Made by a program: the position numbers and the translations under genes | Shown here: piece by piece, positions 17,643 through 55,144 of the stretch | How the letters are laid out: every line of letters begins with the position of its first letter | How positions within the stretch are numbered: the first letter of the stretch is position 1 | The notes under the pieces: generated by a model | The model's database searches: none | Told to the model about the DNA's origin: nothing | The model's input: only the letters and a program-made list of their open reading frames with translations | Origin: Parcubacteria group bacterium | Lineage (GTDB): Bacteria > Patescibacteriota > Minisyncoccia > Moranbacterales > UBA2206 | DNA: 64,000 nucleotides | Direction of reading: 5' to 3' | Assembly: GCA_041664225.1 (NCBI GenBank) | Contig: JBAYLE010000002.1 | Location: 3,541-67,540 of the forward strand

Positions 17643-17682
17643 AAAAGGCATTGGAATCCAAAAAATCACACTAATTATCGCC

Positions 17683-19791: not shown

Positions 19792-21679
19792 CAATTTAAA
19801 ATCTCCCGAAGATTTTTTCAAGCGGAATAAATTTTGGGCGCTGCTGCTTTTGCCGCTGGCGATATATTTCTATTTTGGATTGCAACACCTCGCCCAATTC
19901 GAAACTGCCGACGAACACTATTGGATCTATAGCAACACCAATAATAATAATTACTGGGACAACAATAACGGGCGGATCGAACAATATTGGAGCGCGCTCG
20001 CTTCCGGCAACTGGAAAAAAACCCGCATCAATGACAAACCCGGCATAACTTTGGCGTATGTTTCCGGTATCGGTTCGTGGCTAAAGACAAATCTGGAGAA
20101 GGGGATTGTTTCTGGGGCCATCGCTCCGATGTCGAAAATCGACAAAGCGGAAAGGATAAATTTTTATTTTCGTTTTCCACTCTTGATTTTTAATGGACTT
20201 TTTTCGCTGGTTCTTTTCTTTTTAGTTAAAAAGCTGACAAAAAATGATTGGATCGCGCTTATAACCGCGACACTGATTTTGCTCTCTCCCATACTTCTGG
20301 GAATTTCGCAAATTATCAACCCGGATTCCTTATTGTGGGTATTCAGCTTCGCCGCAATTTTGACTTATCTTATCCATCTCAAAGAAAATAGCCTGCGATA
20401 TGCCTTATGGGCATCCCTGTTCTTGGGGTTATCTCTTCTCTCTAAATATTCTTCCATAATTTTATTTCCATTTTTCTTCGCCGTCATGCTGGCCTACCTC
20501 ATTGAAAATTTTAAATCTTGGGGCAAACAAACGATTGCTCGAAAAATTCGCCGCTACGCGTTCACATATTTTTTAATTATTGCCGGAGCCTTGTTTATTT
20601 ATGCTGTTTTGCTTCCCGATAATCTGGTAGAATTCCGCCATTTTATGAAGGGCAGTCTTGGCTTTAAGGGTATGCAGACTTTTTTTCTGGCATTGATTGG
20701 ATGTAATCTGCTTATTTTGCTCGACGCCCATTTTTTTCAGAGCAAGACCATGCGATGGGTCGCAAATACAATATCGCCCCTGGAAAAATACTTTAAGCTG
20801 GCTATTTTTACGATTTTGCCCATCCTTTTTATTGTTATTATTTTCAACACGCTTATCGAAAAAGACCAGCTCGGACTTTTCATAACGCCTTTTGACGCAT
20901 CTCTCAAGTCCATTTTTTCCCAGCTGCCTGACTGGAAAATCATTCTCAAGCAATTTTTGCCATTGATATTCTCTCTTTCGCCGATGGTCGTTTTATTTTT
21001 ACTGTATGCCTGGATCAGAAACTGGCGTAAAAGTGACGAATTCCAATGGATCATATTTGTCTTTTCATTTTTCATCCTTGTGCTCGTTGCTGCCTCTATG
21101 CAACAAAAAATAATGCTCATCGTGCGCTATAGTATCATGTTGTATCCTCTAGTTTTCACTATGGCGGCTATCGGGATTTATCAATTTTTTATGTTAGATA
21201 AAAAAAGCAATGCCTTTAAAACGGTTATTTTCACCGGGATAATTTTAATCAGTATCATAAGTCTTTGGCAAATCAAACCATTTTATTTTAACTACACCAG
21301 CAGATTGTTGCCCCAACAATATCTCACAACAGACGCCTGGGGCTACGGCGGATATGAGGCGGCTGAGTATTTGAATAGTTTGCCCGACGCCCAAAATATG
21401 CGTATTTGGTCTGATTACAACGGGGTTTGCCTTTTTTTCAACGGAAAATGCGAAGCAAATAATTTAACCATGAAAAACATCCGTAAAAAATCAGAATCAG
21501 CGCCGCGCTTCGATTATTTCGTTTCCGACCGCCGGGGCAGCATTTTGAGCCATAATTTATGGGAAAGCCTGCCCGAACAATATGGCAGCCAATTGATCCA
21601 AGAATCAAATATTGGCGGGCGGGCGGGAAATTTTATTCGAATTTATAAGAATAATTTAATCCAATCAAATGGAAACTAA
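19775..21679 (+). CDS. GT-C/PMT_2-family membrane glycosyltransferase, paralog 2
   Basis: Its start overlaps the end of paralog 1. The same conserved blocks are present (TADEHYW, RINDKPGITLAYVSGI, WGYGGYEAAEYLNSLPDAQN). Confidence 0.7.
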   Translation: MALLNDNLKSPEDFFKRNKFWALLLLPLAIYFYFGLQHLAQFETADEHYWIYSNTNNNNYWDNNNGRIEQYWSALASGNWKKTRINDKPGITLAYVSGIGSWLKTNLEKGIVSGAIAPMSKIDKAERINFYFRFPLLIFNGLFSLVLFFLVKKLTKNDWIALITATLILLSPILLGISQIINPDSLLWVFSFAAILTYLIHLKENSLRYALWASLFLGLSLLSKYSSIILFPFFFAVMLAYLIENFKSWGKQTIARKIRRYAFTYFLIIAGALFIYAVLLPDNLVEFRHFMKGSLGFKGMQTFFLALIGCNLLILLDAHFFQSKTMRWVANTISPLEKYFKLAIFTILPILFIVIIFNTLIEKDQLGLFITPFDASLKSIFSQLPDWKIILKQFLPLIFSLSPMVVLFLLYAWIRNWRKSDEFQWIIFVFSFFILVLVAASMQQKIMLIVRYSIMLYPLVFTMAAIGIYQFFMLDKKSNAFKTVIFTGIILISIISLWQIKPFYFNYTSRLLPQQYLTTDAWGYGGYEAAEYLNSLPDAQNMRIWSDYNGVCLFFNGKCEANNLTMKNIRKKSESAPRFDYFVSDRRGSILSHNLWESLPEQYGSQLIQESNIGGRAGNFIRIYKNNLIQSNGN

Positions 21680-23585
21680 AACAGAAGAAGCTAAAATGAA
21701 AGAAACCGAGCCGAAAGAAACCGAAAAGAAAAGGGCTGAAATAAAAAAAGACAAATCCTCTTGGTTTTTAGCCTTGCTTATCATCCCGCTAGTGCTTTAT
21801 TTCAATTTCGGTTTGCGGCATCTGACGCAATTTGAAACAGCGGATGAGCATTTGTGGATATCAGATTTATACACTGGACGGATTCAGAGCTATTGGAACG
21901 CCATGGCTTCCGAAAATTGGAAAGGCACCCGCATCAATGATAAACCCGGTATAACCTTAGCGTATGTTGCCGGCATCGGAACCTGGTTTGAAAACAATGT
22001 CCAGGACAAAATCGTCAAAAAAGCCAATTTGACCATAACCTATAATCCTGAGAAAACAACTGAAACCTTCTACATCTACCGCAAGCCCCAGGTCGTTTTC
22101 ACAGGCTTGATGGGAATTTTCTTCTGCTTAGCTTTATGGCGTCTAACTCGAAAAGTCTGGTTGGCCTTGGCCGGGGCCTCTCTGGTTTTGCTTTCTCCGA
22201 TCCTTATCGGCATCTCGCAAATCATTAACCCAGACGCAATGTTGTGGATCTTTTCTTCCGCCAGCCTGCTTTCTTTTTTCGTATTTTTGAAAGAAACAAG
22301 ATTTATTGATGCCTTTTTGGCCGCTTTTTTCCTCGGGTTATCACTTCTTTCAAAATACGTGGCACTCATATTTTTTCCATTTTTTCTAGTCATGCTTTTG
22401 GCCTATTTGCTGTTTTATTACACCGAATTGATCGAGCAGAAAACTTTGCTACGCAAAACAATTGAAATCACCTTGGGTTATATATTTATTATCGCCGGCA
22501 GCATCGGGCTGTTCGCGCTTGGCATGCCGGCAGCCATCGTCAATACCAGTATTATTTACAAATCGATTTTTGAATTCGGCGGCATGCAAAATATCCTTCT
22601 GATCTGTGCTGGAGTAAATCTCGTTCTTTTTTTGGACGCAGCGCTTTTGAAATCTTTTATCGCGAAATTTTTACTCAAATACCTCCAATTTCTAAAAATT
22701 GTCCTGCCAAAAATTTTGTATTTAGCTATGCTTGTTTTAGCCGCGGCCACTATCGCTAATTGGTCATTTATGAATAATTTTCTGCATACCCCAATTCTTG
22801 AGGTCGGCGGAGGTAAGCGGCCGATCATCCTCACTTTTCCTTTCTATCAGCAAATGGTTCTACAGGCTAAACCGTTGTTTTTTTCCATCACACCGATCGC
22901 TTTGTTTCTAATATTTTTTCTCTGGGCAAAATCAATCTTCCGCCGGAGCAGTTTTGATTATATTGTTTTTATCCTTTCACTTTTCTTTCTAGTCTTCTTT
23001 TACACGGTCACTCAGCAAGCCCTTTTGGTAAATGTCCGCTATTCCGTTGTTCTTTATCCTTTTGCGTTAACCTTGGCGGCCATCGGTTTTTATGAGATAA
23101 TTAAGAACCTCAAGCATTATTATTCACTAGCCTTGTTTTTGCTCCTGCTCGGCGCTAGCTATCTCAGTGTTTCCAAAATACAACCGTTCTACTTCAACTA
23201 CTCGAATGATTTACTGCCAAAGAATTCCATAATTACGACTGCCTGGGGCTATGGCGGATACGAGGCGATTAATTATATAAAGTCTCAAGGTGACCCCAAA
23301 AATATGAAGATTTGGGCAAACTATTATGGGGCCTGTCCGTTTTTTGCCGGTAAATGCGCCGTTGAGGGTTCAACCAAGTGGATGAAAGAGAGTGAAATTT
23401 TGAATATTGATTATGTAATTCTCAGCCAAGACGGACTTAGCAAAAACAAAAAAGGACTGCAGGCTATCAATGAGATATTTCCAACTGACAACCCGGTTTG
23501 GGAACTAGTTATCGACGGCCGACCGGACAATTTTGTCAAAGTATATAAAAATCCTTTAAAACAAACTACTTATGAAAACAATTGA
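21669..23585 (+). CDS. GT-C/PMT_2-family membrane glycosyltransferase, paralog 3 (K/E-rich N-terminal tail)
   Basis: It overlaps paralog 2 by 11 nt. Blocks TADEHLW, RINDKPGITLAYVAGIGTW and WGYGGYEAINYI are present. Confidence 0.7.
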   Translation: METKTEEAKMKETEPKETEKKRAEIKKDKSSWFLALLIIPLVLYFNFGLRHLTQFETADEHLWISDLYTGRIQSYWNAMASENWKGTRINDKPGITLAYVAGIGTWFENNVQDKIVKKANLTITYNPEKTTETFYIYRKPQVVFTGLMGIFFCLALWRLTRKVWLALAGASLVLLSPILIGISQIINPDAMLWIFSSASLLSFFVFLKETRFIDAFLAAFFLGLSLLSKYVALIFFPFFLVMLLAYLLFYYTELIEQKTLLRKTIEITLGYIFIIAGSIGLFALGMPAAIVNTSIIYKSIFEFGGMQNILLICAGVNLVLFLDAALLKSFIAKFLLKYLQFLKIVLPKILYLAMLVLAAATIANWSFMNNFLHTPILEVGGGKRPIILTFPFYQQMVLQAKPLFFSITPIALFLIFFLWAKSIFRRSSFDYIVFILSLFFLVFFYTVTQQALLVNVRYSVVLYPFALTLAAIGFYEIIKNLKHYYSLALFLLLLGASYLSVSKIQPFYFNYSNDLLPKNSIITTAWGYGGYEAINYIKSQGDPKNMKIWANYYGACPFFAGKCAVEGSTKWMKESEILNIDYVILSQDGLSKNKKGLQAINEIFPTDNPVWELVIDGRPDNFVKVYKNPLKQTTYENN

Positions 23586-25122
23586 TCTGCAAAAATTTTT
23601 AAATTGGTCCAAATCAAAAAACGTGGTTATCGTGATTCTGCTCATCATTGTTTTCTTGGGCGGCATTTTGCGCCTTTATCACCTGGGCGCCAATCCATTG
23701 GTAGCCGATGAATTTTTGGATATGAACTCGTCTTATGGTTATTTTAAAACTCATATCTGGCAAGCCTGGGATTTCAACATGGATGCTCCAAGTAATATCG
23801 ATGTTTATGCCGCCAGAGACGAACGGGCTTGGCCGTATAAATGGCAGGTGGCTCAGCTTTTTCGATTTTTTCCATCCACGGAAGCCGCCGCCCGCAGCTT
23901 GAGCGTCATCTGGGGGCTAATTTCTGTTTTTGCCGTGTATTGGGCGGCAAAATCTTTTACCAAAAAGAAATCCATCGGCCTCTTGGGCGCTTTTTTATTC
24001 GCGGTGAGCGCTACTGCCATTGCTTTTGACCGAAAACTGCGCATGTATGCGATGTTTTATCCCATGTTTCTCTTGATGTCTCTTTTTCTTTTCCAGTTTT
24101 TAGAAGCCGATTATCACGGCAAAATCAGACTGGTTAAGTTTTTTTATGATAAGTTCAAAATAAACGTTCTTTTCCTAGTCCCATTCTTGGTCACAGCGCT
24201 TATTGGCATTTCCATCCAGCTTTTAAGCGTAAATATTCTGCCGGTTTTTCTAGTATATATTTTGATTCAAGCCATAATTTCAGCGCGCCGGAAAGATTAC
24301 GTCAACAAATATTCAATAATCCTGGGTCTTTCAATTATCGCGGCAATCGCCGCTTTCATCACTGTTCCCCAGATAATTGTTTATTATTCCGGCGTTCTTA
24401 AATTTTTCATAAACAACCATGGCTATCTCACGGACATATTAAGAGACTACAGCAATTATCCGCTGGCGATTATTCTTTTGATCTCGGGAATTTATTTTTT
24501 GAGACAGCAAAAGTTATCCAGAGAATCATGGTGGCTTTCTCTTTCATTTTTTGTGCCGCTTTTAATGGCCGCCTTTATGTGGCAAAGGACGCAGGGCATC
24601 CAATATGTTTTTTTCTTGCAATCTTTTCTGATAATTTTAATCGCAACCGGTATTTATTTTTGGGCCCTATATTTGCGAAATCGCTTGGTTAAATTTCCTC
24701 AAAAAGCCTTCTATACAGTGATTATTTTGGCTTTGCTAATCCTGCCTGATTATGGTTATTTTTTCCGCAACGACACCACTTATCAGCGGGGCAATAACCA
24801 GATTGCTGATTATCGCAAAGTTTTTAAATACGTGAAGAAAAATCTGAAACCGGGCGATGTTCTTCTAACTAGAAATTTTAGAAATTATTATTTCAGCGGG
24901 GCAAAAGTCAAAGTTTTTGATTTTGGGGGAGAGAGAGCCACGCATGATTTATCCGTTGCTGACATCCAGCAAATACAAAATCAAAATCCGCACGGCTGGG
25001 TAGTGCTTTTTGACAATGACGAAGATTTTATAAATAAAGAAGCAATAAATTATATCAAACAAAACTTCACCCAGGTTGATAATTCCCAAGTCAGGGGAGC
25101 AAGCGACGCTTATACTTGGTAA
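23572..25122 (+). CDS. GT-C/PMT-like membrane glycosyltransferase (shorter, divergent fourth member)
   Basis: It overlaps paralog 3 by 14 nt. LYHLGANPLVADEFLDMNSSYGYF is a DE motif after TM1. It has more than 10 TM helices. Confidence 0.6.
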   Translation: MKTIDLQKFLNWSKSKNVVIVILLIIVFLGGILRLYHLGANPLVADEFLDMNSSYGYFKTHIWQAWDFNMDAPSNIDVYAARDERAWPYKWQVAQLFRFFPSTEAAARSLSVIWGLISVFAVYWAAKSFTKKKSIGLLGAFLFAVSATAIAFDRKLRMYAMFYPMFLLMSLFLFQFLEADYHGKIRLVKFFYDKFKINVLFLVPFLVTALIGISIQLLSVNILPVFLVYILIQAIISARRKDYVNKYSIILGLSIIAAIAAFITVPQIIVYYSGVLKFFINNHGYLTDILRDYSNYPLAIILLISGIYFLRQQKLSRESWWLSLSFFVPLLMAAFMWQRTQGIQYVFFLQSFLIILIATGIYFWALYLRNRLVKFPQKAFYTVIILALLILPDYGYFFRNDTTYQRGNNQIADYRKVFKYVKKNLKPGDVLLTRNFRNYYFSGAKVKVFDFGGERATHDLSVADIQQIQNQNPHGWVVLFDNDEDFINKEAINYIKQNFTQVDNSQVRGASDAYTW

Positions 25123-27425: not shown

Positions 27426-29408
27426 TTATTCAGATTGCGAACGATAAAAATTCCTTATCTCGCCATTATTATACACTTGCCAGAAATTATTATCTTTTTC
27501 AAATTGAGGCGCATCAGTTTTGTTAATCATCGCAAAGTTTATCCCGAGATCTTGGTAGCATTTCTGGCTGTCCGGACTGGACGGCGTAGAAATCATCCAG
27601 AGTGTGCAGGATTCTTTTTTATCTATGCCGTTGGCATAGCGGTCAAAATTAGCTCGGTAAAATGGAAAATTATAATCGCGCATAAAAAACAATTTAACCC
27701 ACGCATCCGCAGTCATAAAAACGTGGTCCTTGACGATCTGATCGCTTCCATCTGTTTTTTGCGCCAAATATCGCGAAGCGGCGAATGTCTGTACGGTTTT
27801 TTGCGCGTCAGCATTTTTAATTTGATTTTGTTTATTATCATAAAAACCCTGGGCCACCGCATAAGAAAAAATAAGCACCATCACGACCAAAAGCATTTTG
27901 GAGCTCAAAAACAATTGACTCGCGCCTTCTGGAGATTTAGCTTTGCTCTTCGCTATTCCGATGATTTCGATAATCGCCAAAGAAGCCAGGATGGAAAATG
28001 GGAAGCTGCCATAATTGCCGATCCGCGATGAGGGAACGTCGATTTTTATCCATTGCGGATAAAGGGAAATCAGCAAGATAACAAGAATCCAGGAAATCAT
28101 GAATATGGCTTGATAGCCAGAATCATTTTCGTCTTTACGCTTATATAAAAGGAGTAGGGCCAGTCCGGCGCCGACTAGCCCCAAAACTTCCCGCGGTTCG
28201 CCGATCGTAAATTTAAATTGGGAAAATATGAGCCCCTCATGGCCAGCCTTGGATGGCCCTCCAATTACGGTGTTCACCGCCGTATTTTTCAGATATGACG
28301 GCGTATAAACTCCCAAAACAAAAACCAGCGCGAAAATTAAAAATATGATGACCGGCCAGGAAAAAAATAACTTTGCCCATTGCCCAAGCATAGAGCGAGC
28401 TTGGCGAAAATTGAAAATTAAAAGCAACACGACAGAGAGCGCCAAAATGAAAATTAAAATAAATCCAGTCAAATGATGAGTATAAAAAAGACCCATGGTT
28501 GAAAAAAATGCCGCCATCGCGTGCGCCCGATTTTTCTCGGTCAGCGCCCGATAGAAGAAATAGAAAGAAACCGGAAGCAGGAGATTGCCCAAGATGTTAC
28601 CAATAACACCGCCAGCTACATATTTGGCTTCTGGTGGGGAAATGGCAAATAATGGACCAATGAAGAAAAGCGCCAGAATCGCGATATTTTTGGCCTGCGA
28701 GTGGTTCTTAAAAAAGCGCAAAGCTAAAATAAAAATTGCTAAAATACTAGCTAGATTAATTAAGAAAAGAGTTACAACAGGAAAGTATGAAATAAAATCC
28801 AACCCGCTCAAGATGGCAACGGCAGAAAAAATCAGATGTTCACCAATAATAAAATCGCTAATATTTTGCAATGGTCCGATCTGATACACTCCGTTTATCT
28901 GCTGAATATCCCGCTGAGCGTATTCCGGGATATGCCCCGAAACAGCAATCTCTTTGGCCCAATACATATGATGCCCAAGATCAGTGGCTTGCGGCAAAAT
29001 ATTATCCGCAAGATAGGCAACTTTTATAAAAATGGTTAAGAAAAGAATCGCGATTATCAGCGCTGTTTGTTTTTTGGAAAAATTAAACAACTTGTTGGTT
29101 TCCGCTTCGGCCTCAAAATCGCTTTGTCTTTTGACTAATTTATAAATCGCGAAGCAAATTACTGCGAACACCAAAATTGCAGCCAAAAGGGAAGCGCGCG
29201 TTATTGATATATCCAAGCGATTTAGGATCATCATCAGAAAATCAACGGAGATAATACTGAAAACAACCGCTATCACCAGTTTTTCAATGCCGGAAAATAT
29301 CTTTTTTTTGCCAAAAATTGCCAATAGCAAAAAATAGCCAGGCAGAAATAATACCAAGACCAACGAAACATAAAAAAGTATTTGATTTCCTAAAAAATTA
29401 AGCATCAA
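27426..29408 (-). CDS. Large polytopic membrane protein (660 aa), putative GT-C-like glycosyltransferase/polymerase
   Basis: It has about 13 TM helices and a C-terminal soluble domain. It overlaps the start of the downstream GT4 gene. Confidence 0.55.
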   Translation of the reverse strand: MMLNFLGNQILFYVSLVLVLFLPGYFLLLAIFGKKKIFSGIEKLVIAVVFSIISVDFLMMILNRLDISITRASLLAAILVFAVICFAIYKLVKRQSDFEAEAETNKLFNFSKKQTALIIAILFLTIFIKVAYLADNILPQATDLGHHMYWAKEIAVSGHIPEYAQRDIQQINGVYQIGPLQNISDFIIGEHLIFSAVAILSGLDFISYFPVVTLFLINLASILAIFILALRFFKNHSQAKNIAILALFFIGPLFAISPPEAKYVAGGVIGNILGNLLLPVSFYFFYRALTEKNRAHAMAAFFSTMGLFYTHHLTGFILIFILALSVVLLLIFNFRQARSMLGQWAKLFFSWPVIIFLIFALVFVLGVYTPSYLKNTAVNTVIGGPSKAGHEGLIFSQFKFTIGEPREVLGLVGAGLALLLLYKRKDENDSGYQAIFMISWILVILLISLYPQWIKIDVPSSRIGNYGSFPFSILASLAIIEIIGIAKSKAKSPEGASQLFLSSKMLLVVMVLIFSYAVAQGFYDNKQNQIKNADAQKTVQTFAASRYLAQKTDGSDQIVKDHVFMTADAWVKLFFMRDYNFPFYRANFDRYANGIDKKESCTLWMISTPSSPDSQKCYQDLGINFAMINKTDAPQFEKDNNFWQVYNNGEIRNFYRSQSE

Positions 29409-30513
29409 TTATTTTTTTAATTTCTTCTAAATATCGCAAAGCAATTTTGTCCCAAGTAAAATTATCTAGGACATATTGTCTCGCTTTTTGGCCAAACTCT
29501 GCCCGGAAATTGTCCTGGGTCAAAACTTCTTTAATTTTTGAAATCCAAGCCTCCGCGTTTTCATGTTCTACTGAAAATCCATTCTTTCCATCAATAATTG
29601 CATCTTTTAGCCCTTCAATATCTGAAGCCAAAACTACTCTTCCACAGGCCGCTCCTTCAATGGCGGTAATGCCAAAGCCCTCCATATAGCCGACAACTTT
29701 TACATTAGGTGAGATAAAAAGATCCGCACAATTGAGAAGAACCAACTTGCTTTTTTCATCAATGTCAGTAATCAGCCTGGCTCGATTTTCCAGGTCCAAT
29801 TCTCGGATGGCTTTCTCGCAAGCCGGGTATGTGTCTTTATTGCCAGCCGCCTTCGTTGAAACTCTGCCGCCCACCGCTACAAAAAAATAATCTTCCGGCA
29901 ACTTAGGCAAAACATTGCGCAAAAACCATTCGACTCCTTTATGCGGAACAAACCGCGCGATCCGTAAAATAACTTTTTTGCCAGCAATATCGATTCCCAG
30001 AACTTTAGTCATATCCTCGCGCAAACAAGAAATCGCCAACTCTTCCGGAATAATGCCGTTGGGAATAAAAACACAATGGTCACGACTGATTCCGATTTTT
30101 TCCGCCTCCTCAATAGTATGATTTCCAACCATAAACAGCTTGTCAATTTTTTTCATGGACGGAACATTCACGTATCTGTAAATTTTGGAAAGAATTCCAG
30201 TATTATGGACAAAAGTTATATCCAGACCATGCACGGTGCTAAAAAATTTTTTTCGCGGATAAATTATTTTCAAAACCGCTCCGATAGGGGACAGAACTCC
30301 GCTTCCCAAAAGGCACACGTCATACGACAGCATTAAAAAAAGAGACCGTAAAAACGTGACTGGCAAAAAAATTGGCAGCCATTTCTTTCCTTTTGTGTTG
30401 GCAATGATTTTGACCTCCGCGTGCTTTTTCAAGCCCCCCGACAAGTAATAGTTTTGTCTTTCCAGCCCGCCGAATGTCGGCGGAAAAGTATGAGAAATGT
30501 ATAAAATCTTCAT
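29398..30513 (-). CDS. GT4-family (GT-B) glycosyltransferase
   Basis: MKILYISHTFPPTFGGLERQ is a typical GT4 N-terminus. The C-terminal EGFGITAIEGAACGRVVLASDIEGL motif is present. Confidence 0.85.
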   Translation of the reverse strand: MKILYISHTFPPTFGGLERQNYYLSGGLKKHAEVKIIANTKGKKWLPIFLPVTFLRSLFLMLSYDVCLLGSGVLSPIGAVLKIIYPRKKFFSTVHGLDITFVHNTGILSKIYRYVNVPSMKKIDKLFMVGNHTIEEAEKIGISRDHCVFIPNGIIPEELAISCLREDMTKVLGIDIAGKKVILRIARFVPHKGVEWFLRNVLPKLPEDYFFVAVGGRVSTKAAGNKDTYPACEKAIRELDLENRARLITDIDEKSKLVLLNCADLFISPNVKVVGYMEGFGITAIEGAACGRVVLASDIEGLKDAIIDGKNGFSVEHENAEAWISKIKEVLTQDNFRAEFGQKARQYVLDNFTWDKIALRYLEEIKKIIDA

Positions 30514-30594: not shown

Positions 30595-31575
30595 CTATTT
30601 TTTATACCTATCCTTCTTCCACTGATACATAAATTCCTCAGTGAGTTGTCGCGAGGATTTGACCATATCGGCAATAAGAGCAAAAACCACAAACTGCAAA
30701 CCAACCAGAAACAAAGCCACGCCGAAAATCAAGTAATTGCGATAAGGCGTGATTTTAAAATCTGGAAAATAATTATAGAGAAAAATAGCAAAGGAGATGA
30801 GCGATAAAAATATCAGAAACAGGCCCGGTACTCCAAAAAATTTCATCGGCCTAACATCGCGCACAGCTTTCAAAATAATTTTAGTTGAATTACTGACAAA
30901 TTTCCAGATAGATTTGGTCATTTTGGCTTCTCGGTCAGCATAGTAGGTGACCTCCACCGGAACCCATGCCAGTTTCAAGTTTTTGCCGATCGCGTCAATG
31001 ATCGTTTCTTGAGTATAGGTAAAATGAGTATTGGTAAGATTAAAACGAAGCATGGCTTCACGGCTATGCGCCCTAAAGCCACAGGTCAAATCATCCGTTT
31101 TGTAATTTAGAAAAAAGCCAATCAATCTCGCCGCGAACTTGTTTAAATTTTTCTTTATCCAAGGAATATCCTTCGCCTCAACACCGCCAAAACGATTAGC
31201 AATGACCATGTCTGATTTGCCATCCAAAATTGGCTCCAGAAGCTTGGGAATATCATATGGATTGAATTGTAAATCAGCATCAATATTTACCATCAAATCG
31301 GCTCCGTTTTCCAAGGCGCTTTCCACGTTTCTTTTGAAAGAATAGGCCAGGCGCCTATTGGGCTTGTAGGAAATGACGATATCCACACCGGCCTCGCGAG
31401 CATTTTGAACGGAATTATCCACAGATCCATCATCAACAATCTGAATAAGTTTTTCCGTTATAACAGAGCCTTTTTGCGAATAAAACGAATCATTAAAACT
31501 TTCTCTGATGGTTTTAATGGTTTTTCCGATATGCGCTTCTTCATTATATACTGGAATATTTACAATAAGTTTCAT
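30595..31575 (-). CDS. GT2-family polyprenyl-phosphate glycosyltransferase (DPM1/GtrB-like), second copy
   Basis: MKLIVNIPVYNEE...VDDGSVDNS...NIDADLQFNP are GT-A motifs, with two C-terminal TM helices. Confidence 0.85.
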   Translation of the reverse strand: MKLIVNIPVYNEEAHIGKTIKTIRESFNDSFYSQKGSVITEKLIQIVDDGSVDNSVQNAREAGVDIVISYKPNRRLAYSFKRNVESALENGADLMVNIDADLQFNPYDIPKLLEPILDGKSDMVIANRFGGVEAKDIPWIKKNLNKFAARLIGFFLNYKTDDLTCGFRAHSREAMLRFNLTNTHFTYTQETIIDAIGKNLKLAWVPVEVTYYADREAKMTKSIWKFVSNSTKIILKAVRDVRPMKFFGVPGLFLIFLSLISFAIFLYNYFPDFKITPYRNYLIFGVALFLVGLQFVVFALIADMVKSSRQLTEEFMYQWKKDRYKK

Positions 31576-31581
31576 GTTTTA

Positions 31582-31812
31582 TCATTTCTTTTTAATAATT
31601 AGGCCTGGGTCAGTACAATTAAAATCACACGTAGCATTTTTCGTACCCTGTTCAACAAGATTCTTAGCGCATTCATTCAACCTTTCCTGACATTTAGCCT
31701 TGCTTTCATCGAAATAATTACGATTAATTTCATAGCCAAAATAGTTCAACACAAAAAGCGCAACAACCACGAAACCAACAATCCAAATTATACCCTTGAT
31801 AATACTGAACAT
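31582..31812 (-). CDS. Small membrane-anchored Cys-rich protein (76 aa)
   Basis: It has an N-terminal TM helix and C-terminal C-x7-C...C-x3-C. It lies 6 nt upstream of GT2 on the same strand. Confidence 0.4.
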   Translation of the reverse strand: MFSIIKGIIWIVGFVVVALFVLNYFGYEINRNYFDESKAKCQERLNECAKNLVEQGTKNATCDFNCTDPGLIIKKK

Positions 31813-31857
31813 TTTTTATTTTGTTAATTTTTATCTTTTGTTTAAGCCTTTCTTAAA

Positions 31858-31892
31858 AAAACTAAGGGGTATAATACCATAAAAGCATTATA
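31858..31892 (-). terminator. Terminator-like hairpin downstream of the nucleotide-sugar dehydrogenase gene
   Basis: Minus strand: AAGGGTATAAT-gcttttatggt-ATTATACCCCTT followed by AGTTTTTTT. Confidence 0.5.
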
Positions 31893-31932
31893 CCCTTATT
31901 CAAATTTTCCGACAAGTTTCATTTTTCCCAAA

Positions 31933-33387
31933 TTAGCGGCCAATTCCAGCATAAACTATTCCGGCTGCGCGGATAGCTTTTTTATCCAAACAATTTCGAC
32001 CATCGATAATCACTTTAATGCCGTTTTTTACGAAATCTTCTACTGGAATATTTTTGAATACTTTGTGATCGGTTACAACAACCAGCGCCTCTGATCTTGA
32101 AAGAATCTCATCTAAATCTTTGGCAGTTGAAATTGACGGCATTGTTGCAATGTATGGATCAAATGCCATCAAGTCAGCGTCCATTTTTTTAATTTTATCA
32201 ATGATGCGGATCGCGGGACTTTCACGCAAATCCCCGACATCGGCTTTATAGGAAATTCCCAGAACGCCAACCTTTGTACCTTTAACCGCTTTTTCAACTT
32301 CATTCAGCTTGTTCTGTAGCATTTCCACTGTGTAGTCTGCCATTCCATCATTGATATGTCTGGCCGCAGAAAGAAACTTGTGCTCAAAACCATTCTCTTT
32401 GGCTTTTTCGATCATGTAATATGGATCGACTGGAATGCAATGTCCGCCGACGCCACAACCTGGTCGGTGAGGCATGAAAGCATACGGTTTTGAAGCTGCT
32501 CCCTTGATCACGTTGGTAATGTCAATTCCGAAGCGAGCATACGACATCGCCATTTCGTTTACAAAAGCGATATTGATGTCTCGGAAAGAATTCTCCAAAA
32601 TTTTCACCGCCTCCGCCTCTCGGATATTTTCCATCGGCACTATTTCGCCAGTGACAATTGTTTTATAAAATTCCAAAGATCGTCTCAGGCCTTCTTCATC
32701 CATCGAGCCAAGAACGCGGGGGAGATTGGAAACATTCCAACCCTTATATTCATCCCCGGGATTGATACGTTCCGGACAGTGAGAAATAAAAACATCTTTT
32801 CCAACAACATATCCAGCTTTTTCAAAAATCGGTGCCACAACATCTTCACTCACACCCGGGTTAACGGTTGATTCCAAAACAACCAGCACATCTTTTTTCA
32901 TGTTTTCAGCGATGGTCTTGCACGCGTTTATCACCGGATCCAAAATAGGATAATGTTTTTCGTTTACTGGCGTCGGTACGCAGATGATAAAAATGTCCAT
33001 CATCTTCATCAGACGCGGATCACTGAAGGTGTTTATCTTGACCCTTGGAAGCAATTCTTCCAGAAGTTCTTCACGAAGAAAGTTAACTTTTTGATCGATG
33101 AGTTTGAGTTTTTCCAAATCCGTATCAAAACCATAAACTTCATAGCCCTTACTAGCTGTCACTGCCGCCAGGGGATAACCAACATAGCCCATACCGACAA
33201 CACAAACGACCGGCTTCGCGGAAGTCGATTTGGTGTCGCCAGAAGATTTGATCACACTATTTTCCCGGAGCAATTGGTCCAGCTTAGCGTTGATTTCTTC
33301 TATTTCATTTTTCTCAATATTTGTTGACATAAGGCGTAAGTTTTTACATTCTACTATGTGTCGGATAGGGTAGTCAAATGTTTCCAA
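31933..33387 (-). CDS. Nucleotide-sugar dehydrogenase (UDP-N-acetyl-D-mannosamine/glucosamine dehydrogenase-like, WecC/WbpA type)
   Basis: VVCVVGMGYVGYPLA is a Rossmann motif. The catalytic Cys region GCGVGGHCIPVDP is present. The first ATG gives a 60-aa N-terminal extension, and an alternative start lies at the internal Met near 33327. Confidence 0.85.
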   Translation of the reverse strand: METFDYPIRHIVECKNLRLMSTNIEKNEIEEINAKLDQLLRENSVIKSSGDTKSTSAKPVVCVVGMGYVGYPLAAVTASKGYEVYGFDTDLEKLKLIDQKVNFLREELLEELLPRVKINTFSDPRLMKMMDIFIICVPTPVNEKHYPILDPVINACKTIAENMKKDVLVVLESTVNPGVSEDVVAPIFEKAGYVVGKDVFISHCPERINPGDEYKGWNVSNLPRVLGSMDEEGLRRSLEFYKTIVTGEIVPMENIREAEAVKILENSFRDINIAFVNEMAMSYARFGIDITNVIKGAASKPYAFMPHRPGCGVGGHCIPVDPYYMIEKAKENGFEHKFLSAARHINDGMADYTVEMLQNKLNEVEKAVKGTKVGVLGISYKADVGDLRESPAIRIIDKIKKMDADLMAFDPYIATMPSISTAKDLDEILSRSEALVVVTDHKVFKNIPVEDFVKNGIKVIIDGRNCLDKKAIRAAGIVYAGIGR

Positions 33388-33552
33388 ATGTTGCCATTTC
33401 TACCGAACAACATACCTTAGCAGGGATGTTAAATTTTGTCAAGAGTAAAGGCATATTTAGGCAGGTATTTTTTATAATTCAAATTTCTTGAAGTTTTTGA
33501 TTATGATCTAGGGCTTTATACAAGCCACTTCTACCAAGCCAAGGCCGAGCCA

Positions 33553-33581
33553 TTGACAAAACGCTAATTTAGGCATATAAT
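33553..33581 (+). promoter_or_regulatory. Consensus sigma70-type promoter driving the GC-rich oxidoreductase gene
   Basis: TTGACA (33553-33558), a 17-nt spacer, then TATAAT (33576-33581). A strong SD (GAGGAGGA) lies 6 nt before the ATG at 33675. Confidence 0.6.
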
Positions 33582-33674
33582 GAATGGTTCTGAATAAGGA
33601 AAGGTATTTGTCAACAAAATAACGAAACATTAAACCCAGCCGTATAGCTGGACATATCAGATGAGGAGGATCAC

Positions 33675-34784
33675 ATGAAGAAAGGAAAGATTTTACTTGT
33701 AGGAGCAGGAGGACAGATGGGCGGTTATTATATGAACGCTCTGCTCAATGACTTGGGAATACCCCCATGTCAGATCGTCGCAGTCGATATCGACCCCGAC
33801 AAGATCGCGAAGTTTCGGGAGAAATATCCGGATGTCACGATCATAAGCAACCTGGACGAAGAAGTTGATATCCACGAAGGATTTCTGGCGGTAAAGCCGG
33901 CATCAGGCATCAAGACGGCCATCGTCACGACCTACACGCCGTCGCATCACCTCGTGATCGTAGACCTTATCAAGCGGGGAGTGGAGAACATCTTCACGGA
34001 AAAACCGCTTGCGCTCGACAGCGACAAGGTGGCCTACATCAGGGCCAACATGAAGCCCAACACGAAAATTTACACCGCCTTCTTGATCAATTTTTCCGGC
34101 GGGGTAAAGTTCGTCGAGGATTTCATGATAAAGGAAGAGCTTTATCTTTCAGAGGCTTTTGTCAACTGGGGCAAAGACAGGACAGGTGACAATCGTCCGA
34201 CTCCTGGCGATCTCGAAGACGAGAGCGTGCACGGCATCGGGGTTGTGCATATTCTGTCAAGGATCAATCAAACCGTGAAAAACATCAGGATCATGGCAAA
34301 CCTCTCATATCTGGACTATGTCGATCCGATCGTTCAGGCCAAGGCTCATGGGATGGACGAATCTTTCCCGCTGCCGGCGGATGTGAACTCCAGTTCCTTC
34401 ATATCGGAAACGATTGAAACGAACAGGGGCACGATCTTAGCTGGGACGAGAAGTTCATACGTCAATATCCAGCAGGTGAGACAAATGAATCTCATTCTGA
34501 GCGGCATCGCATCAGGAAAGCCTGAGTATTTGATCGAGATCAACTTCGACACCAAAGAGGGCGATGTCCTTCTGGTGAAAAAGACCGGCGCGAAAGAAAT
34601 CGCAATACACGCTTTCGCTGGCAACAAGAAGATAACCGAGGAAACGCATGCATTCCTGAAAGTCGTTGCCGGGCAGGCACAGGATCCGCGGCTAACCGAC
34701 TTTGCTGCCGCTGAAACCGCTGTCGTGGTTTCTGACGCAGTAAAGAAAAGTCACCGCACAAACACAATGGTGACAGTCGTATAA
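33675..34784 (+). CDS. Gfo/Idh/MocA-family NAD(P)-dependent oxidoreductase (probable sugar / nucleotide-sugar dehydrogenase); compositionally foreign
   Basis: ILLVGAGGQMGGYY is a Rossmann motif, and the EKP hallmark (IFTEKPLAL) is present. The gene is about 52% GC versus about 36% in the flanks. Confidence 0.6.
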   Translation: MKKGKILLVGAGGQMGGYYMNALLNDLGIPPCQIVAVDIDPDKIAKFREKYPDVTIISNLDEEVDIHEGFLAVKPASGIKTAIVTTYTPSHHLVIVDLIKRGVENIFTEKPLALDSDKVAYIRANMKPNTKIYTAFLINFSGGVKFVEDFMIKEELYLSEAFVNWGKDRTGDNRPTPGDLEDESVHGIGVVHILSRINQTVKNIRIMANLSYLDYVDPIVQAKAHGMDESFPLPADVNSSSFISETIETNRGTILAGTRSSYVNIQQVRQMNLILSGIASGKPEYLIEINFDTKEGDVLLVKKTGAKEIAIHAFAGNKKITEETHAFLKVVAGQAQDPRLTDFAAAETAVVVSDAVKKSHRTNTMVTVV

Positions 34785-34798
34785 GTACGCTGTTATCG

Positions 34799-34850
34799 AA
34801 GGGATGGTTAGCTCAAGCTAGTTCTATGAGCGCCATCCCTTTTTTTATTT
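34799..34850 (+). terminator. Terminator of the GC-rich gene
   Basis: AGGGATGG...CCATCCCT, an 8-bp stem with a long loop, followed by TTTTTTTATTTTT. Confidence 0.55.
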
Positions 34851-34902
34851 TTATAAATTTGATATAATACAAATATAATGAACGTGCTAAAAACATTACG
34901 AA

Positions 34903-35643
34903 ATGGATAAAAATGAAAAAACTCGCTGGGAAACCAGAGGAATCATTAAAGGAAGAGTTCCTATGGCATACACCGAACAAGAAATTCCCGGAAAAATTTT
35001 GTATAGTGACGCGGAATCAGAAAATGTTAGTAGAAAGTCTTGTGATATGTTGAGTTGGATTAATCAAAGTATGTCTCCCGGTAAAAAATTACTGGATATT
35101 GGCTCCGGACCCGGTCACCTCGAGTATTGGAATATGAAAATAAATAAGCCGCCTTTTGATATTACTATCTATGATCAATCATCATACTTTTTAAACATTG
35201 CTCAAGAAAAAATTCCTAATCTAAAAGCAGTCAAGGCAGATTTACCACATCTTCCTTTTCCTGATAATCAATTTGATGGAGTTATTTGCATCGATATACT
35301 TGAACATATATATCCTGAAACCGCCCTTCAAACAGTATACGAATCATTCAGAATTTTAAAACCCGGAGGCTGGATATTTATTTCTATACCCAACAGGCAT
35401 ACTTGGACACGCGTCTACTTTAATGTTATAAGACATGTTTGGCTCGCCTCAAGAAAAGAGATAAGAGCATTATTGGAAACGGCTGGGTTTGACGAAAAAA
35501 CAATACACATAAAAACCAGGGGATTTCCAGGTGCAAATACCTATCACGAACTGACCCGGAAAGTAGCCGGAAAGGCAAGTGATTTTTATTTACCCTGTGG
35601 CGGATCCGTCATCCTCGCAAACGCACAAAAACCAACTAATTAA
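34903..35643 (+). CDS. Class I SAM-dependent methyltransferase
   Basis: LLDIGSGPGHL is motif I. FDGVICIDILEHI and ILKPGGWIFIS are motifs II and III. Confidence 0.75.
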   Translation: MDKNEKTRWETRGIIKGRVPMAYTEQEIPGKILYSDAESENVSRKSCDMLSWINQSMSPGKKLLDIGSGPGHLEYWNMKINKPPFDITIYDQSSYFLNIAQEKIPNLKAVKADLPHLPFPDNQFDGVICIDILEHIYPETALQTVYESFRILKPGGWIFISIPNRHTWTRVYFNVIRHVWLASRKEIRALLETAGFDEKTIHIKTRGFPGANTYHELTRKVAGKASDFYLPCGGSVILANAQKPTN

Positions 35644-35668
35644 ATTTAATTATATAATATAGAAAAAC

Positions 35669-36559
35669 ATGAAGAAAATTAATGCTCTAATTACGGGGGG
35701 AAGCGGATTCATTGGAAGTCATCTAACAGATACTCTTACGAAGTCCGGTTTTAATGTCACAATTTTTGATATTAAGAAACCTACCCAAAAAAATAATGCT
35801 AGAGTTAAATTTGTCCGTGGTGACATAACAAATAAAAATGCACTGATAAAGGCCCTTAAAAACCAGGATTATGTTTTTCATCTGGCGGCTCTTATGGGGA
35901 CCAGTGAGTTGCTTCAGTGTTCAGATAGAGCGGTGCACATAAACATTGAAGGCACTGTGAATGTACTTGAAGCATGCAAAAAACAAAGTGTTAAGGCTAT
36001 TATCTTATCGAAACCGCATGCATGGTTAAATACTTACACCATAACGAAGCAAGCCGCCGAAAAATTTGCTTGGATGTATAAAAATGAGTTTGGCATACAA
36101 GTAGCAATTGTAAAATTTTTTAATGTTTACGGGCCCAACGAGCCGGCCGGGAAGCGAGCTCCATACCGCAAGGCTGTACCTACTTTTATTTTAAATGGTT
36201 TAGCTGGAAAGAATATTGAAATTTATGGTGATGGAAAACAAACTGCTGATTTTGTCTATGTGACTGACGCTGTTCGAGCGCTTGCAATGGTTGCAAAAAA
36301 TTGGAATAAATGTGAAGGAAAAACACTCGAGGCTGGAAGTGGAATTAAAACTTCCGTAAACAACCTTGCCTCCATCATCCGTAAGCTTACTGGAAACAAA
36401 TCAGAAATAATTCATGTGCCAATGAGACCAGGAGAAATTTCTGGGACACACGTCTTAGCAAAATCTGGTCTTTTGAAAAAGATCACTGGTTGGAAATGCG
36501 AAGTTAGTTTTGAAGATGGATTAAAACAGACCATAGATTGGTACAAAAAGACTATTTAA
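35669..36559 (+). CDS. NAD-dependent epimerase/dehydratase (extended SDR; UDP-sugar 4-epimerase-like)
   Basis: ALITGGSGFIGSHL is the GxxGxxG motif. The catalytic YxxxK is in YTITKQAAEK. Confidence 0.85.
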   Translation: MKKINALITGGSGFIGSHLTDTLTKSGFNVTIFDIKKPTQKNNARVKFVRGDITNKNALIKALKNQDYVFHLAALMGTSELLQCSDRAVHINIEGTVNVLEACKKQSVKAIILSKPHAWLNTYTITKQAAEKFAWMYKNEFGIQVAIVKFFNVYGPNEPAGKRAPYRKAVPTFILNGLAGKNIEIYGDGKQTADFVYVTDAVRALAMVAKNWNKCEGKTLEAGSGIKTSVNNLASIIRKLTGNKSEIIHVPMRPGEISGTHVLAKSGLLKKITGWKCEVSFEDGLKQTIDWYKKTI

Positions 36560-36569
36560 ATTTAAAAAT

Positions 36570-37139
36570 TTGAATAAGAAAAAACCGTGGTCGACATTAT
36601 CATCTAAAATTATTCATAAAAATGAACGTTTTTATGTTTCCCATGAAAAATTTGCGCTACCCGGAGGGAAAACTGGAGACTATTATTTTTTCAATACTGT
36701 GCAAGGCACCAACAAATCCGTCCTAGTGATACCGATCATCAAGGATGAAATTTTGTTGATAAAACAATACCGCTATCTGACAAAAAATTGGTCACTGGAA
36801 ATTCCCGGCGGAGGCGTAAAAAAAGATTCGACATTTCTAAAAACCGCTCAAAAAGAATTGTGTGAAGAGGTTGGGTATAAAGCAAAAAAATTCCGCCTTA
36901 TCGGACGCTTCGACCCATACACGAGCAAATCAAAAGAAATTTGCTCGGTTTATTTGGCAACAGATTTATCTTTTGTCGGCCAGAAGCTAGATGACGAGGA
37001 ACACGGCTCAGAAGTCGTCAGAATAAAAATCAAGAAACTGTATCAGCTTGTTGATAAGGGAGAAATTACCTCCGGTCCGATTCTGGCCGCCTTAGCCTTG
37101 GCTAACAAAAAATTGTTGCAAGATTCAATTTTAAAATAG
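36570..37139 (+). CDS. NUDIX hydrolase (ADP-ribose / nucleotide-sugar pyrophosphatase-like)
   Basis: The Nudix box is GGGVKKDSTFLKTAQKELCEEVGY (G-x5-E-x7-REUxEExGU pattern). Confidence 0.8.
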   Translation: MNKKKPWSTLSSKIIHKNERFYVSHEKFALPGGKTGDYYFFNTVQGTNKSVLVIPIIKDEILLIKQYRYLTKNWSLEIPGGGVKKDSTFLKTAQKELCEEVGYKAKKFRLIGRFDPYTSKSKEICSVYLATDLSFVGQKLDDEEHGSEVVRIKIKKLYQLVDKGEITSGPILAALALANKKLLQDSILK

Positions 37140-37151: not shown

Positions 37152-38060
37152 ATGTGGATTTTGTATTCCTTAATTGGAGCGTTTTCACAGGCGCTAGGAG
37201 CAGCTTTCAAAAAGAAAGCTCTGCAAACACCTGGGATGAACAACGTCATTGGTTTCATATCGTTTGCATTTGCCGGAATAATATTTTGGCTGCTATATTT
37301 TTCGAACACTGAAACTTTTTGGATAGAAAATTTAAGCCATCGCTTTTGGGGGGCCATGTTTTGGTATGCCGGACTTAATATCATAGCTGCTTGGTTTTTG
37401 TATCGCGCCCTTGATTTGGCGGAATTCAACCATCTGATGCCGTTTATGACGCTAACCTCACTGACGCTTATTATCCCGCCCATATTTATTTTGGGCGAAG
37501 TACCGTCACTGGTAAGCATTCTCGGAATAATCCTTATCGTTTCTGGGGTGCTGTATATTAATTACAATCCGAGTAAGGTTGGCCAGCCAACGCAATCAGA
37601 CGATCAACGCAAAGCGAACCGCAAGGGCGTGTTGTATTTTTTGGTAACCGCCATTTGTTATACTATTACACCGACCGCTGCAAAAATAACCGTGCAAGAA
37701 AGTTCCGCGATGTTTGCCTCTGCAATTGTGCACCTTCTGGTTGGGCTTGGTTTTTTGGGAATGATTATTGCATTGCGTGAATTGCCAAGATTATCTGCGG
37801 TACTCCGACGGCCTACATATAGAAAACTGTTTCTGGCAATACTCGTGACGGGAATAATAATAGTTTTTGAAAATGGAAGTATTAATACCGCGCTAAGCAC
37901 CACATCAGTTGCTTATGTCTTCGCAATCAAACGACTGATGCCGTTCTTCGCTTTTTTGATCGGCTTGTTCTATTTTAAAGAGAAAACAGATCTCAAAAAG
38001 AAGATTTTGGCCACCGCGCTGATGGTCGCTGGAGCGGTTATCGTAACTTTATTCGGGTGA
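37152..38060 (+). CDS. EamA/DMT-family transporter (10 TM helices)
   Basis: It shows the two EamA repeats and the hydrophobic profile. Other members of this family transport sugar-nucleotide or lipid-linked-sugar substrates. Confidence 0.75.
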   Translation: MWILYSLIGAFSQALGAAFKKKALQTPGMNNVIGFISFAFAGIIFWLLYFSNTETFWIENLSHRFWGAMFWYAGLNIIAAWFLYRALDLAEFNHLMPFMTLTSLTLIIPPIFILGEVPSLVSILGIILIVSGVLYINYNPSKVGQPTQSDDQRKANRKGVLYFLVTAICYTITPTAAKITVQESSAMFASAIVHLLVGLGFLGMIIALRELPRLSAVLRRPTYRKLFLAILVTGIIIVFENGSINTALSTTSVAYVFAIKRLMPFFAFLIGLFYFKEKTDLKKKILATALMVAGAVIVTLFG

Positions 38061-48914: not shown

Positions 48915-49199
48915 TTATCTCTTAATCTCTTCCACTGAAACAAAACTCCTTTCTTGCAGTTTTCCGGTGAATAATCTAACCTTTTTGGCCACAAATTTTA
49001 CCAAGCCTTTTTTGAGCGCGAAAAGTGTATCATCTTCGCCTCTGCGGACGTTCTTCCCGACGCGGAATTTTGTGCCTCTTTGACGAACAATGATTTGGCC
49101 TGATTCGGCCCTCTGACCGCCAAAAATCTTTACGCCTAGTCTTTTAGAAATAGAATCCCTGCCTAGTTGGGTAGATCCGCCTGCTTTACGATGTGCCAT
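48915..49199 (-). CDS. rpmA: 50S ribosomal protein L27
   Basis: [29 protein letters not shown] matches the L27 N-terminus. No rplU is adjacent. Confidence 0.9.
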
Positions 49200-55132: not shown

Positions 55133-55144
55133 GCTCAAACTATT

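Follow-up and report, generated by a model that had tools for sequence, protein, structure and literature searches.

Probable horizontal exchange of an oxidoreductase gene at a variable slot of a Patescibacteria surface-glycan locus

Introduction

The loci for O-antigens, capsules and cell-wall polysaccharides contain variable regions that determine the serotype, are reshuffled by horizontal transfer and have an atypical GC content, which is usually AT-rich. In mosaic operons, single genes are reportedly displaced in situ by others. We analyzed a stretch of 64,000 nucleotides (the window) from contig JBAYLE010000002.1 of a Parcubacteria-group genome (Patescibacteria, also known as the candidate phyla radiation or CPR), which is dominated by envelope-glycan genes according to Pfam and TIGR profile scans of its open reading frames (ORFs). 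The subject of this study is a gene for a Gfo/Idh/MocA-type oxidoreductase (OX, 33675-34784), which is divergent from a gene for a nucleotide-sugar dehydrogenase (DH, 31933-33330); a protein identical to OX is annotated in a Parcubacteria-group metagenome-assembled genome (MAG). The locus was compared with loci fetched from other genomes and contigs, designated by L numbers such as L030. OX is best explained by the horizontal exchange of cassettes in a variable slot of the surface-glycan locus, which we consider probable.

The locus resembles the variable regions of polysaccharide loci in several respects. Conserved genes for a flippase, a Wzy_C-type protein, an LCP protein and glycosyltransferases of families 4 and 2 (GT4 and GT2) enclose variable sugar-modifying genes, the arrangement forms a mosaic when close relatives are compared, and the variable genes are of atypical composition. 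It differs from the typical cases in its Patescibacteria host, in compositional deviations that go in both GC directions, with OX being GC-rich, and in the exchanged unit, which is a single coding sequence (CDS) between retained expression signals. Like in-situ gene displacement, the locus presents an unrelated gene at the same position in a conserved arrangement of related genomes. Here, however, the breakpoints can be located to a few nucleotides from the start codon and ~15 nt beyond the stop codon, and the regulatory flanks are visible in the nucleotide sequence. In the literature, we found no specific treatment of glycan hypervariability in Patescibacteria.

Results

The slot beside the dehydrogenase gene

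DH has much closer relatives than OX, namely those of L030 (87% identical), L031 (85%) and L032 (81%). OX is missing at this junction in all three, which are the closest relatives of the locus, and the absence agrees with the import that an earlier note on this DNA had proposed. Between L030 and the window, the flippase, DUF6541, DH, GT4, Wzy_C and second GT4 proteins are 82-89% identical. The interval between DH and the gene for an EamA-family transporter, instead, contains GT2, DUF218 and PIG-L genes in L030 and OX, methyltransferase, epimerase and NUDIX genes in the window. L031 and L032 have yet other genes there, L034 has genes for proteins of 108 and 294 amino acids (aa), and L036 has one for a 271-aa protein. 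Across 15 relatives, the core genes are conserved while the content of the slot ranges from empty to four genes, and its occupants are OX, GT2, DUF218, PIG-L, WbqC-like and HD proteins, epimerases, unknown proteins, or none. In this conserved surface-glycan cluster of Patescibacteria, the position beside DH is a hypervariable slot. The earlier note had described an insertion between glycan-synthesis genes; the neighbors are indeed glycan-synthesis genes by their Pfam and TIGR matches, but OX is one of the occupants of a slot that is filled differently in nearly all relatives. The features of the slot and its borders in the window are as follows.

31933..33330, minus strand: nucleotide-sugar 6-dehydrogenase (DH) of the UDP-N-acetylhexosamine (UDP-HexNAc) dehydrogenase type; TIGR03026, 387 bits, and three UDPG_MGDP_dh Pfam domains
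33331..33674, no strand: divergent intergenic region, AT-rich (36% GC), orthologous to the L030 intergenic region by alignment and composition
33553..33581, plus strand: slot promoter TTGACA-17-TATAAT (-35 box 33553-33558, -10 box 33576-33581), 12/12 consensus match
33636..33651, plus strand: leader stem-loop CCAGC-CGUAUA-GCUGG, ~11 nt upstream of the Shine-Dalgarno (SD) sequence, conserved in L030 and L034
33663..33670, plus strand: SD sequence GAGGAGGA, 4 nt before the ATG, within the conserved leader AGGAGGA-N-CAC-ATG-AA
33675..34784, plus strand: cassette, the GC-rich CDS of a 369-aa Gfo/Idh/MocA-fold oxidoreductase (OX); GC 50.1%, GC at third codon positions (GC3) 62.4%
34798..34855, plus strand: intrinsic terminator, hairpin 34798-34842 and U-run; -23.4 kcal/mol, z = -3.8
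34799..34879, plus strand: conserved 81-bp linker with the terminator and a promoter-like TTTATA-18-TATAAT (34850-34879); 86% identity to L030 8776-8698
34903-35643, plus strand: S-adenosylmethionine (SAM) methyltransferase, by Pfam
35669-36559, plus strand: NAD-dependent epimerase/dehydratase, by Pfam
36570-37139, plus strand: NUDIX hydrolase, by Pfam
37152..38060, plus strand: EamA-family transporter, by Pfam; right edge of the variable region

The borders of the exchanged unit are defined by the comparison with L030. Nucleotide homology runs through 31512-33332, with DH, a conserved core gene divergent from the slot, as the left anchor, and ends at the DH start codon. It returns at 33553-33674 and once more in the 81 bp of 34799-34879, which are an island of homology with non-homologous DNA on either side. 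The OX CDS interval has neither nucleotide nor protein homology to L030. The difference is ORF-sized, extending from a few nucleotides from the start codon to ~15 nt past the stop codon. At the right edge, the EamA protein is 49% identical to its L030 counterpart and nucleotide homology is limited to near the 3' end of the gene. In the flanks, 47-60% of the fourfold degenerate sites are identical between the window and L030, and therefore the split between the two is not recent.

The window and L030 have in common the -35 and -10 boxes, 13 of the 17 spacer bases, the leader hairpin, CAUAUCAGA, the SD sequence and the CAC-AUG-AA start context. In addition, the terminator hairpin is identical at 42 of 43 nt to the one located 3' of the unrelated GT2 gene in L030. 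Because the same signals surround an unrelated gene, they are resident in the slot and do not belong to OX. Likewise, the orthology of 33331..33674 to the L030 intergenic region marks it as resident rather than imported DNA. The leader hairpin (CCAGCCGUAUAGCUGG in the window, CCGGCCGUAUGGCUGG in L030 and CCGGCCGUCAGGCUAG in L034) precedes a different CDS in each of the three loci, and analogous small GC hairpins are present in the leaders of L004, L005, L010, L031 and L036. In most relatives, whichever gene is first in the slot is preceded by a promoter matching 10-12 of the 12 consensus positions, a 70-110-nt leader, a small GC hairpin and a strong SD sequence, and the start context CACAUGAA recurs in distant loci. 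Further copies of the terminator linker or of the leader were found neither in the window nor in the fetched loci other than L030. The terminator was missed by a simple terminator scan because its loop is long.

The leader stem-loop possibly serves to stabilize the mRNA. A regulatory RNA in the 5' leader was considered and rejected, as Rfam families have no match anywhere in the window, including this hairpin, and the fold energy is not significant (z = -0.37). The hairpins of L004 (~9960-9975), L005 (~9965-9980) and L010 (~9965-9980) are located directly 5' of the SD sequence of OX. In these loci they carry UNCG-type tetraloops (CCGGC-UACG-GCC, CCGGC-UUCG-GCC), and in the leaders of the window, L030 and L034 the stem is related and the loop is longer.

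The slot also bears some likeness to an integron cassette, as an ORF-sized unit is preceded by a resident promoter and followed by an imperfect hairpin. Integron attC sites travel with their cassettes. The hairpin of the window, unlike attC, follows different CDSs and is succeeded by a U-run, from which terminator-like behavior would be predicted. We rejected the integron or site-specific cassette model on these grounds, and since there are no integrase and no border repeats above chance level. Similarly, the atypical composition and the absence from close relatives are reminiscent of a mobile genomic island, unlike which the locus has no integrase, transposase or recombinase among the window ORFs (Pfam scans), no tRNA in the 64-kb window and border repeats that are merely at chance level. 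The idea of a phage vehicle was dropped, as a search of 2.9 million viral contigs yielded no member of the family.

Two further slots were noted in the comparison. In L035 (2861-3047) the slot is empty and DH faces GT4b directly. The slot of L037 holds DUF218 and a 135-aa fragment (5344-5751) that matches only the C-terminal domain of UDP-sugar dehydrogenase and looks like a recombination remnant.

Composition of the slot genes

OX is the strongest compositional outlier of the window and its most GC-rich 1.1-kb stretch. Its GC of 50.1% and GC3 of 62.4% compare with means of 40.3 +/- 2.9% and 42.9 +/- 5.6% in the 55 window ORFs of at least 100 aa, and its GC3 exceeds that of the cluster core genes by 18.9 points (z = +7.9). 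The rise is limited to the CDS (~33690-34790), and the intergenic flanks have 36% (33388-33674) and 32% (34785-34902) GC; 33553-34850 as a whole has 48.4%. The GC-rich island of the earlier note is thus real, although its contrast is ~50% against 40% and not the 52% against 36% given there.

Amino-acid content accounts for ~3 of the 10 extra GC points and the remainder is synonymous: under native codon usage OX would have 43.3% GC, as compared with an observed 50.3%. In two-fold codons, C/(C+T) is 0.59 and G/(A+G) at Lys, Glu and Gln is 0.58, while the 41 other genes tested have 0.31 +/- 0.07 (maximum 0.48) and 0.25 +/- 0.05 (maximum 0.35), respectively. This synonymous signature is beyond the range of all 41, so the third positions are G/C-rich unlike those of the neighbors, as had been claimed. 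OX over-uses AGG, ACG, CCG and GGG, favors AAG, GAG and CAG, and prefers C-ending codons in two-fold pyrimidine boxes, which is a general GC shift and not an optimal-codon set. Codon usage of OX is best predicted by Patescibacteria backgrounds of 51-55% GC (-1.14 per codon; the background of its own host gives -1.24). Native genes, in contrast, fit their own host background best, and the GC-rich GT2 slot gene of L030 behaves like OX.

Unusual composition is not confined to OX. Compared with the core genes of their own loci, 18 of 28 slot genes are outliers (|z| > 2), 13 of them GC-rich and five AT-rich. Such a patchwork favors cassettes of diverse origins over a regional force. The earlier note had seen a single foreign gene; the adjacent methyltransferase and epimerase genes are AT-rich outliers as well, with GC3 of 0.30 and 0.32 (13.2 and 11.9 points below the core, z ~ -5). 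They are absent from L030, which has DUF218 and PIG-L in their place, and at the nucleotide level the second variable segment of the slot, from the methyltransferase to the NUDIX gene (34903-37139), has no homologue in any fetched locus. The two genes are probably a second cassette of different origin, parted from OX by the 81-bp linker.

GC-enriched slot genes other than OX include the GT2 (+10 points) and PIG-L (+9.7) genes of L030 (7288-9625), an NmrA-like gene of L032 (3968-9812; +11.9) and the gene for the 271-aa protein of L036 (5772-6587; +12.8, GC3 z = +13). It seems common for AT-rich glycan slots of Patescibacteria to receive GC-rich genes.

The oxidoreductase protein

According to sequence motifs and modeling, OX is a divergent but apparently complete Gfo/Idh/MocA-type oxidoreductase, which bears out the family assignment of the earlier note. 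The Pfam match to the N-terminal GFO_IDH_MocA domain is weak (PF01408, 30.6 bits against a cut-off of 24, residues 5-119). In an alignment with 19 full-length homologues, G10, G13 and G16 of the GxGxxG loop, E109-K110-P111 and D182-x3-H186 are invariant, and the EKP motif, which is the catalytic and cofactor lysine motif, is present in 19 of 19 sequences. An AlphaFold (AF2) model built from the family alignment has a pLDDT of 90.8 and, in Foldseek, matches the two-domain Gfo/Idh/MocA fold including the C-terminal alpha/beta domain for substrate binding and dimerization. The matches are to a putative oxidoreductase (3db2), 1,5-anhydrofructose reductase (4koa), scyllo-inositol dehydrogenase (5yap), levoglucosan dehydrogenase (6a3j) and GFOR (1h6d), all at E ~1e-19 with TM scores of 0.70-0.80 and sequence identities of 10-17%. 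When the family profile was compared with the PDB, the nearest entries among the best 60 of 63 matches were IolG-type inositol 2-dehydrogenases and sugar C-3 dehydrogenases. The profile alignment to IolG extends to position 183, and the D-x3-H equivalence is by sequence motif.

Among characterized enzymes, IolG (3mz0), 1,5-anhydro-D-fructose reductase (4koa/2glx), scyllo-inositol dehydrogenase (5yap), levoglucosan dehydrogenase (6a3j), glucuronide 3-dehydrogenase (8tdi) and DgpA (7xr9) are comparable to OX. OX is like them in fold (TM 0.7-0.8) and in the GxGxxG, EKP and D-x3-H motifs, keeping the Lys/Asp/His catalytic set of the inositol-dehydrogenase type, and unlike them in its low identity (10-17%) and distinct subfamily. 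The subfamily has its own invariant motif, WGK-R-x4-RPTPGDLEDExVH, and comprises ~126 clusters at 50% identity (E <= 1e-30; 1.84 billion representatives searched). It is uncharacterized, comes mostly from Patescibacteria and is usually linked to a UDP-HexNAc dehydrogenase. The closest equivalogs of DH are the UDP-ManNAc and UDP-GlcNAc dehydrogenases, every one below its cut-off. Judging from fold and context, OX would most likely act on a nucleotide-sugar or lipid-linked glycan intermediate, oxidizing or reducing one of its ring hydroxyl or keto groups in an NAD(P)-dependent reaction.

WbpB/WlbA is a UDP-GlcNAcA 3-dehydrogenase that acts as the partner of the 6-dehydrogenase WbpA. As in that system, a Gfo/Idh/MocA gene here adjoins a UDP-HexNAc 6-dehydrogenase gene in a glycan cluster. 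Unlike in that system, Pfam scans of the window ORFs found neither a WbpE-type aminotransferase nor a WbpD-type N-acetyltransferase; the sole aminotransferase is of the class-V NifS/IscS type, beside NifU (53858-55537). The assignment of OX as WbpB/WlbA was therefore rejected, given the missing partner genes and the absence of any entry of that name among the best 60 of the 63 PDB profile matches at E <= 0.01.

Discussion

Our data show a CDS-sized difference between conserved flanks, a patchwork composition of the slot and a non-native codon usage of OX. Horizontal exchange, which the earlier note also advocated, explains these observations best. In the proposed scenario, the slot is divergent from DH and is equipped with a resident sigma-70 promoter, a 90-nt leader with its hairpin, an SD sequence and a terminator, and the OX CDS would have entered it by in-situ gene displacement. 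The event would be a replacement and not an insertion, and its direction may be a gain here or a loss in the relative. A likely route is recombination with another Patescibacteria genome of the same cluster architecture and higher GC (~50-55%), and the simplest mechanism would be homologous recombination among relatives having the common slot architecture. Most gene transfers detected in Patescibacteria stay within the phylum (PMC12455944). OX might then oxidize or reduce a hydroxyl or keto group of the sugar on an intermediate derived from the DH product, and a change of the slot occupant would change the surface glycan.

Several observations weigh against this scenario. A single random recombination event is not expected to give an ORF-precise replacement between retained signals, and the locus has no recombination sites, repeats or recombinase, its border repeats being short and at chance level. 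A search of 5.8 billion proteins gave, apart from OX itself, a best match of 49% identity, so that no donor lineage emerged from the protein comparison that had been suggested. OX co-diverges with the cluster: between L004 and L005, OX and DH are each 73% identical and GT2 91%, and between L007 and L009, OX is 67% and DH 82% identical. OX could thus be a long-standing occupant of the slot, lost in relatives of the L030 type. In 21 of 23 non-redundant loci, moreover, the family member has a higher GC than the remainder of its locus, which could reflect a gene-specific force and not a foreign origin. The enzymatic role, finally, is inferred solely from fold and context.

These points lead to the strongest alternative, namely that OX is old and vertically inherited, that relatives of the L030, L031 and L032 type replaced it, and that its GC-richness is intrinsic, owing to mRNA or codon selection or to GC-biased gene conversion at a hot spot of recombination. 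We regard this as unlikely, though with an appreciable chance of being correct. OX homologues occur in 10 GTDB genomes and 17 metagenome contigs at 34-46% identity. In at least eight further, independent lineages, which include Moraniibacteriota, other Patescibacteria and MAGs labeled Bdellovibrionales and Fimivivens, OX is likewise found in this conserved cluster, in most cases divergent from the corresponding dehydrogenase gene, with DUF218, PIG-L deacetylase, WbqC-like and HD proteins as slot companions. Distance matrices of OX and its neighbors agree for close pairs, although the mosaicism of the cluster limits this comparison. The shared position and the co-divergence indicate that OX is an old associate of the cluster and not a one-off arrival. 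The "recent" date given to the transfer in the earlier note is not supported, since no donor above 49% identity is known and homologues occupy the same slot in distant Patescibacteria, co-diverging with it. That the locus is visibly recombinogenic and mosaic is also in keeping with GC-biased conversion.

The GC excess of the family bears on both views. It averages +6.1 GC points over the 23 loci (Wilcoxon p = 2e-6), and the slope against host GC is 0.71 for OX, as compared with 0.94 for the dehydrogenase control, whose excess is +1.3 points. With an excess in 21 of 23 loci, composition alone is unable to date the event. L004 and L005 OX (78% aa identity over the alignment) both retain ~+15 GC3 points despite largely diverged fourfold sites, as an intrinsic force would predict. 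However, these fourfold sites are unsaturated (identity 0.485, against 0.27 at saturation), and the data are numerically compatible with partial amelioration from a donor with ~0.7 GC at fourfold sites (GC4). The GC3 excess also spans from +2-4 points in the L003 clade to ~+19-20 in the window, the latter being the maximum for loci that offer three or more ORFs for comparison. This spread favors different ages of arrival over one constant force, though a gene-specific force might be the cause. In addition, the AT-rich outliers in the same slot argue against a regional force that raises GC, and the closest homologue (P0002, 49% identical, in L033) looks native in a GC-rich host: it lies in a housekeeping context of a 52%-GC genome and has a GC3 of 0.70 among neighbors of 0.64-0.74.

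A further reading departs from ordinary recombination. The position might be a dedicated expression slot, made of promoter, leader hairpin, SD/ATG context and terminator linker, in which unrelated ORF cassettes are exchanged with near-codon precision and free of an integrase; alternatively or in addition, GC-biased conversion or RNA-level selection might actively maintain the GC excess of the OX family. We give this only a small chance. If true, the expression slot would represent a way of exchanging cassettes that has not been described so far, in which the short leader and terminator act as recombination handles.

The earlier note held that OX came as a self-contained foreign unit, with its own promoter, SD sequence and terminator, that was recently inserted between glycan genes. 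The promoter, the strong SD sequence and the terminator are all present as it described, the unit appears monocistronic and complete, the gene is compositionally foreign and the closest relatives are without it. We nevertheless consider the proposal improbable. Promoter, leader, SD sequence, ATG context and terminator are orthologous to those around a different gene in L030 and AT-rich like the host, which speaks against an autonomous expression unit, and the locus offers a replacement slot, not an insertion point, with nothing to date the event as recent. Perfect promoters are, moreover, native here. The window has two 12/12 matches, and five with at most one mismatch where 0.55 are expected. 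The other 12/12 promoter (49303-49275, minus strand) drives the gene for the 94-aa ribosomal protein L27 (PF01016, 106 bits; region 48915-49303), whose leader carries a small GC hairpin, GCGCGGUACGCGC. Strongly expressed genes of this genome thus seem to be natively equipped with a consensus promoter and a leader hairpin.

The L27 gene also bears on the idea that the high GC3 results from translational, expression-linked codon selection under the strong slot promoter. The perfect promoter, strong SD sequence and terminator of OX would suit it, as would the C-ending codons in two-fold pyrimidine boxes and the frequent GC-richness of first-slot genes of other families. L27, under the same 12/12 promoter, and L9, the other highly expressed native control, however, have GC3 of 0.40 and 0.44 with ordinary two-fold choices, and on this evidence expression-linked bias was ruled out as the cause. 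The use of AGG, ACG, CCG, GGG and of AAG, GAG and CAG points to a general GC shift, and the first-slot gene of L031 is not enriched. We judge this explanation very improbable.

An assembly chimera, in which a GC-rich fragment of another organism was mis-joined, is scarcely credible: although the source is a metagenome, and the two assemblies that contain the contig (100% and 99.995% identical to the window) may not be independent, the composition switches exactly at the start codon behind a matched SD sequence and at the stop codon before the terminator, and the gene-in-slot arrangement recurs in ~8 independent genomes.

Taken as horizontal exchange, the event is a fairly ordinary one in a surface-polysaccharide locus, of the already known kinds of variable region and in-situ displacement. 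Its junctions, in turn, are unusually well resolved and provide an example, down to a few nucleotides, of how the surface glycans of small-genome Patescibacteria diversify, with single CDSs swapped in a slot that is itself conserved and strongly expressed, while the rest of the cluster stays stable. The locus also calls for caution, as a perfect promoter, a strong SD sequence and a terminator around a gene of odd composition are no proof that the gene brought these signals along. Furthermore, it draws attention to an uncharacterized, mostly CPR subfamily of Gfo/Idh/MocA proteins with a GC excess over the host in most loci.

Other features of the window and related loci

The first part of the glycan region contains genes for a GT2, a UDP-glucose dehydrogenase and a GT4. 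The core of the large glycan cluster consists of flippase, DUF6541 membrane protein, GT4, GT2 and UDP-HexNAc-type 6-dehydrogenase genes. To the right of OX, the methyltransferase, epimerase/dehydratase and NUDIX genes are followed by EamA, GT4, Wzy_C, GT4, LCP and GT2 genes, and housekeeping genes lie downstream of the cluster within the window.

Mosaicism is also seen outside the slot. GT4a (29398-30513) is 47% identical to its L030 counterpart and 84% to that of L031, DUF6541 (27426-29408) is 88% identical to L030 and 43% to L031, and GT2 (30595-31575) is merely ~55% identical to all relatives compared. A 76-aa ORF (31582-31812, minus strand) between DH and GT2 has no Pfam match; an ORF of 76-78 aa is called at the equivalent position in L030, L032, L034, L036 and L037, and it is probably a real small conserved protein of the cluster.

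Elsewhere in the window, four genes for PMT/PMT_2-like (GT-C) membrane glycosyltransferases are arranged in tandem (14505-16142, 17614-19791, 19772-21679 and 21669-23585). The series is interrupted by a GH28 gene on the opposite strand (16151-17560) and followed by a 516-aa ORF (23572-25122) that has no Pfam match. The first three ORFs of the window (186-4344) are AT-rich, with 33-35% GC and a GC3 of 0.33, and Pfam gives no match for two of the three; this may be one more segment of distinct composition.

Downstream of the closest OX homologue, in L033, lies a 670-bp non-coding stretch (6652-7324) with a promoter-like TTGACA...TATACT. It has no Rfam match at E <= 0.01, is GC-rich and looks structured, and it may be an undescribed non-coding RNA.

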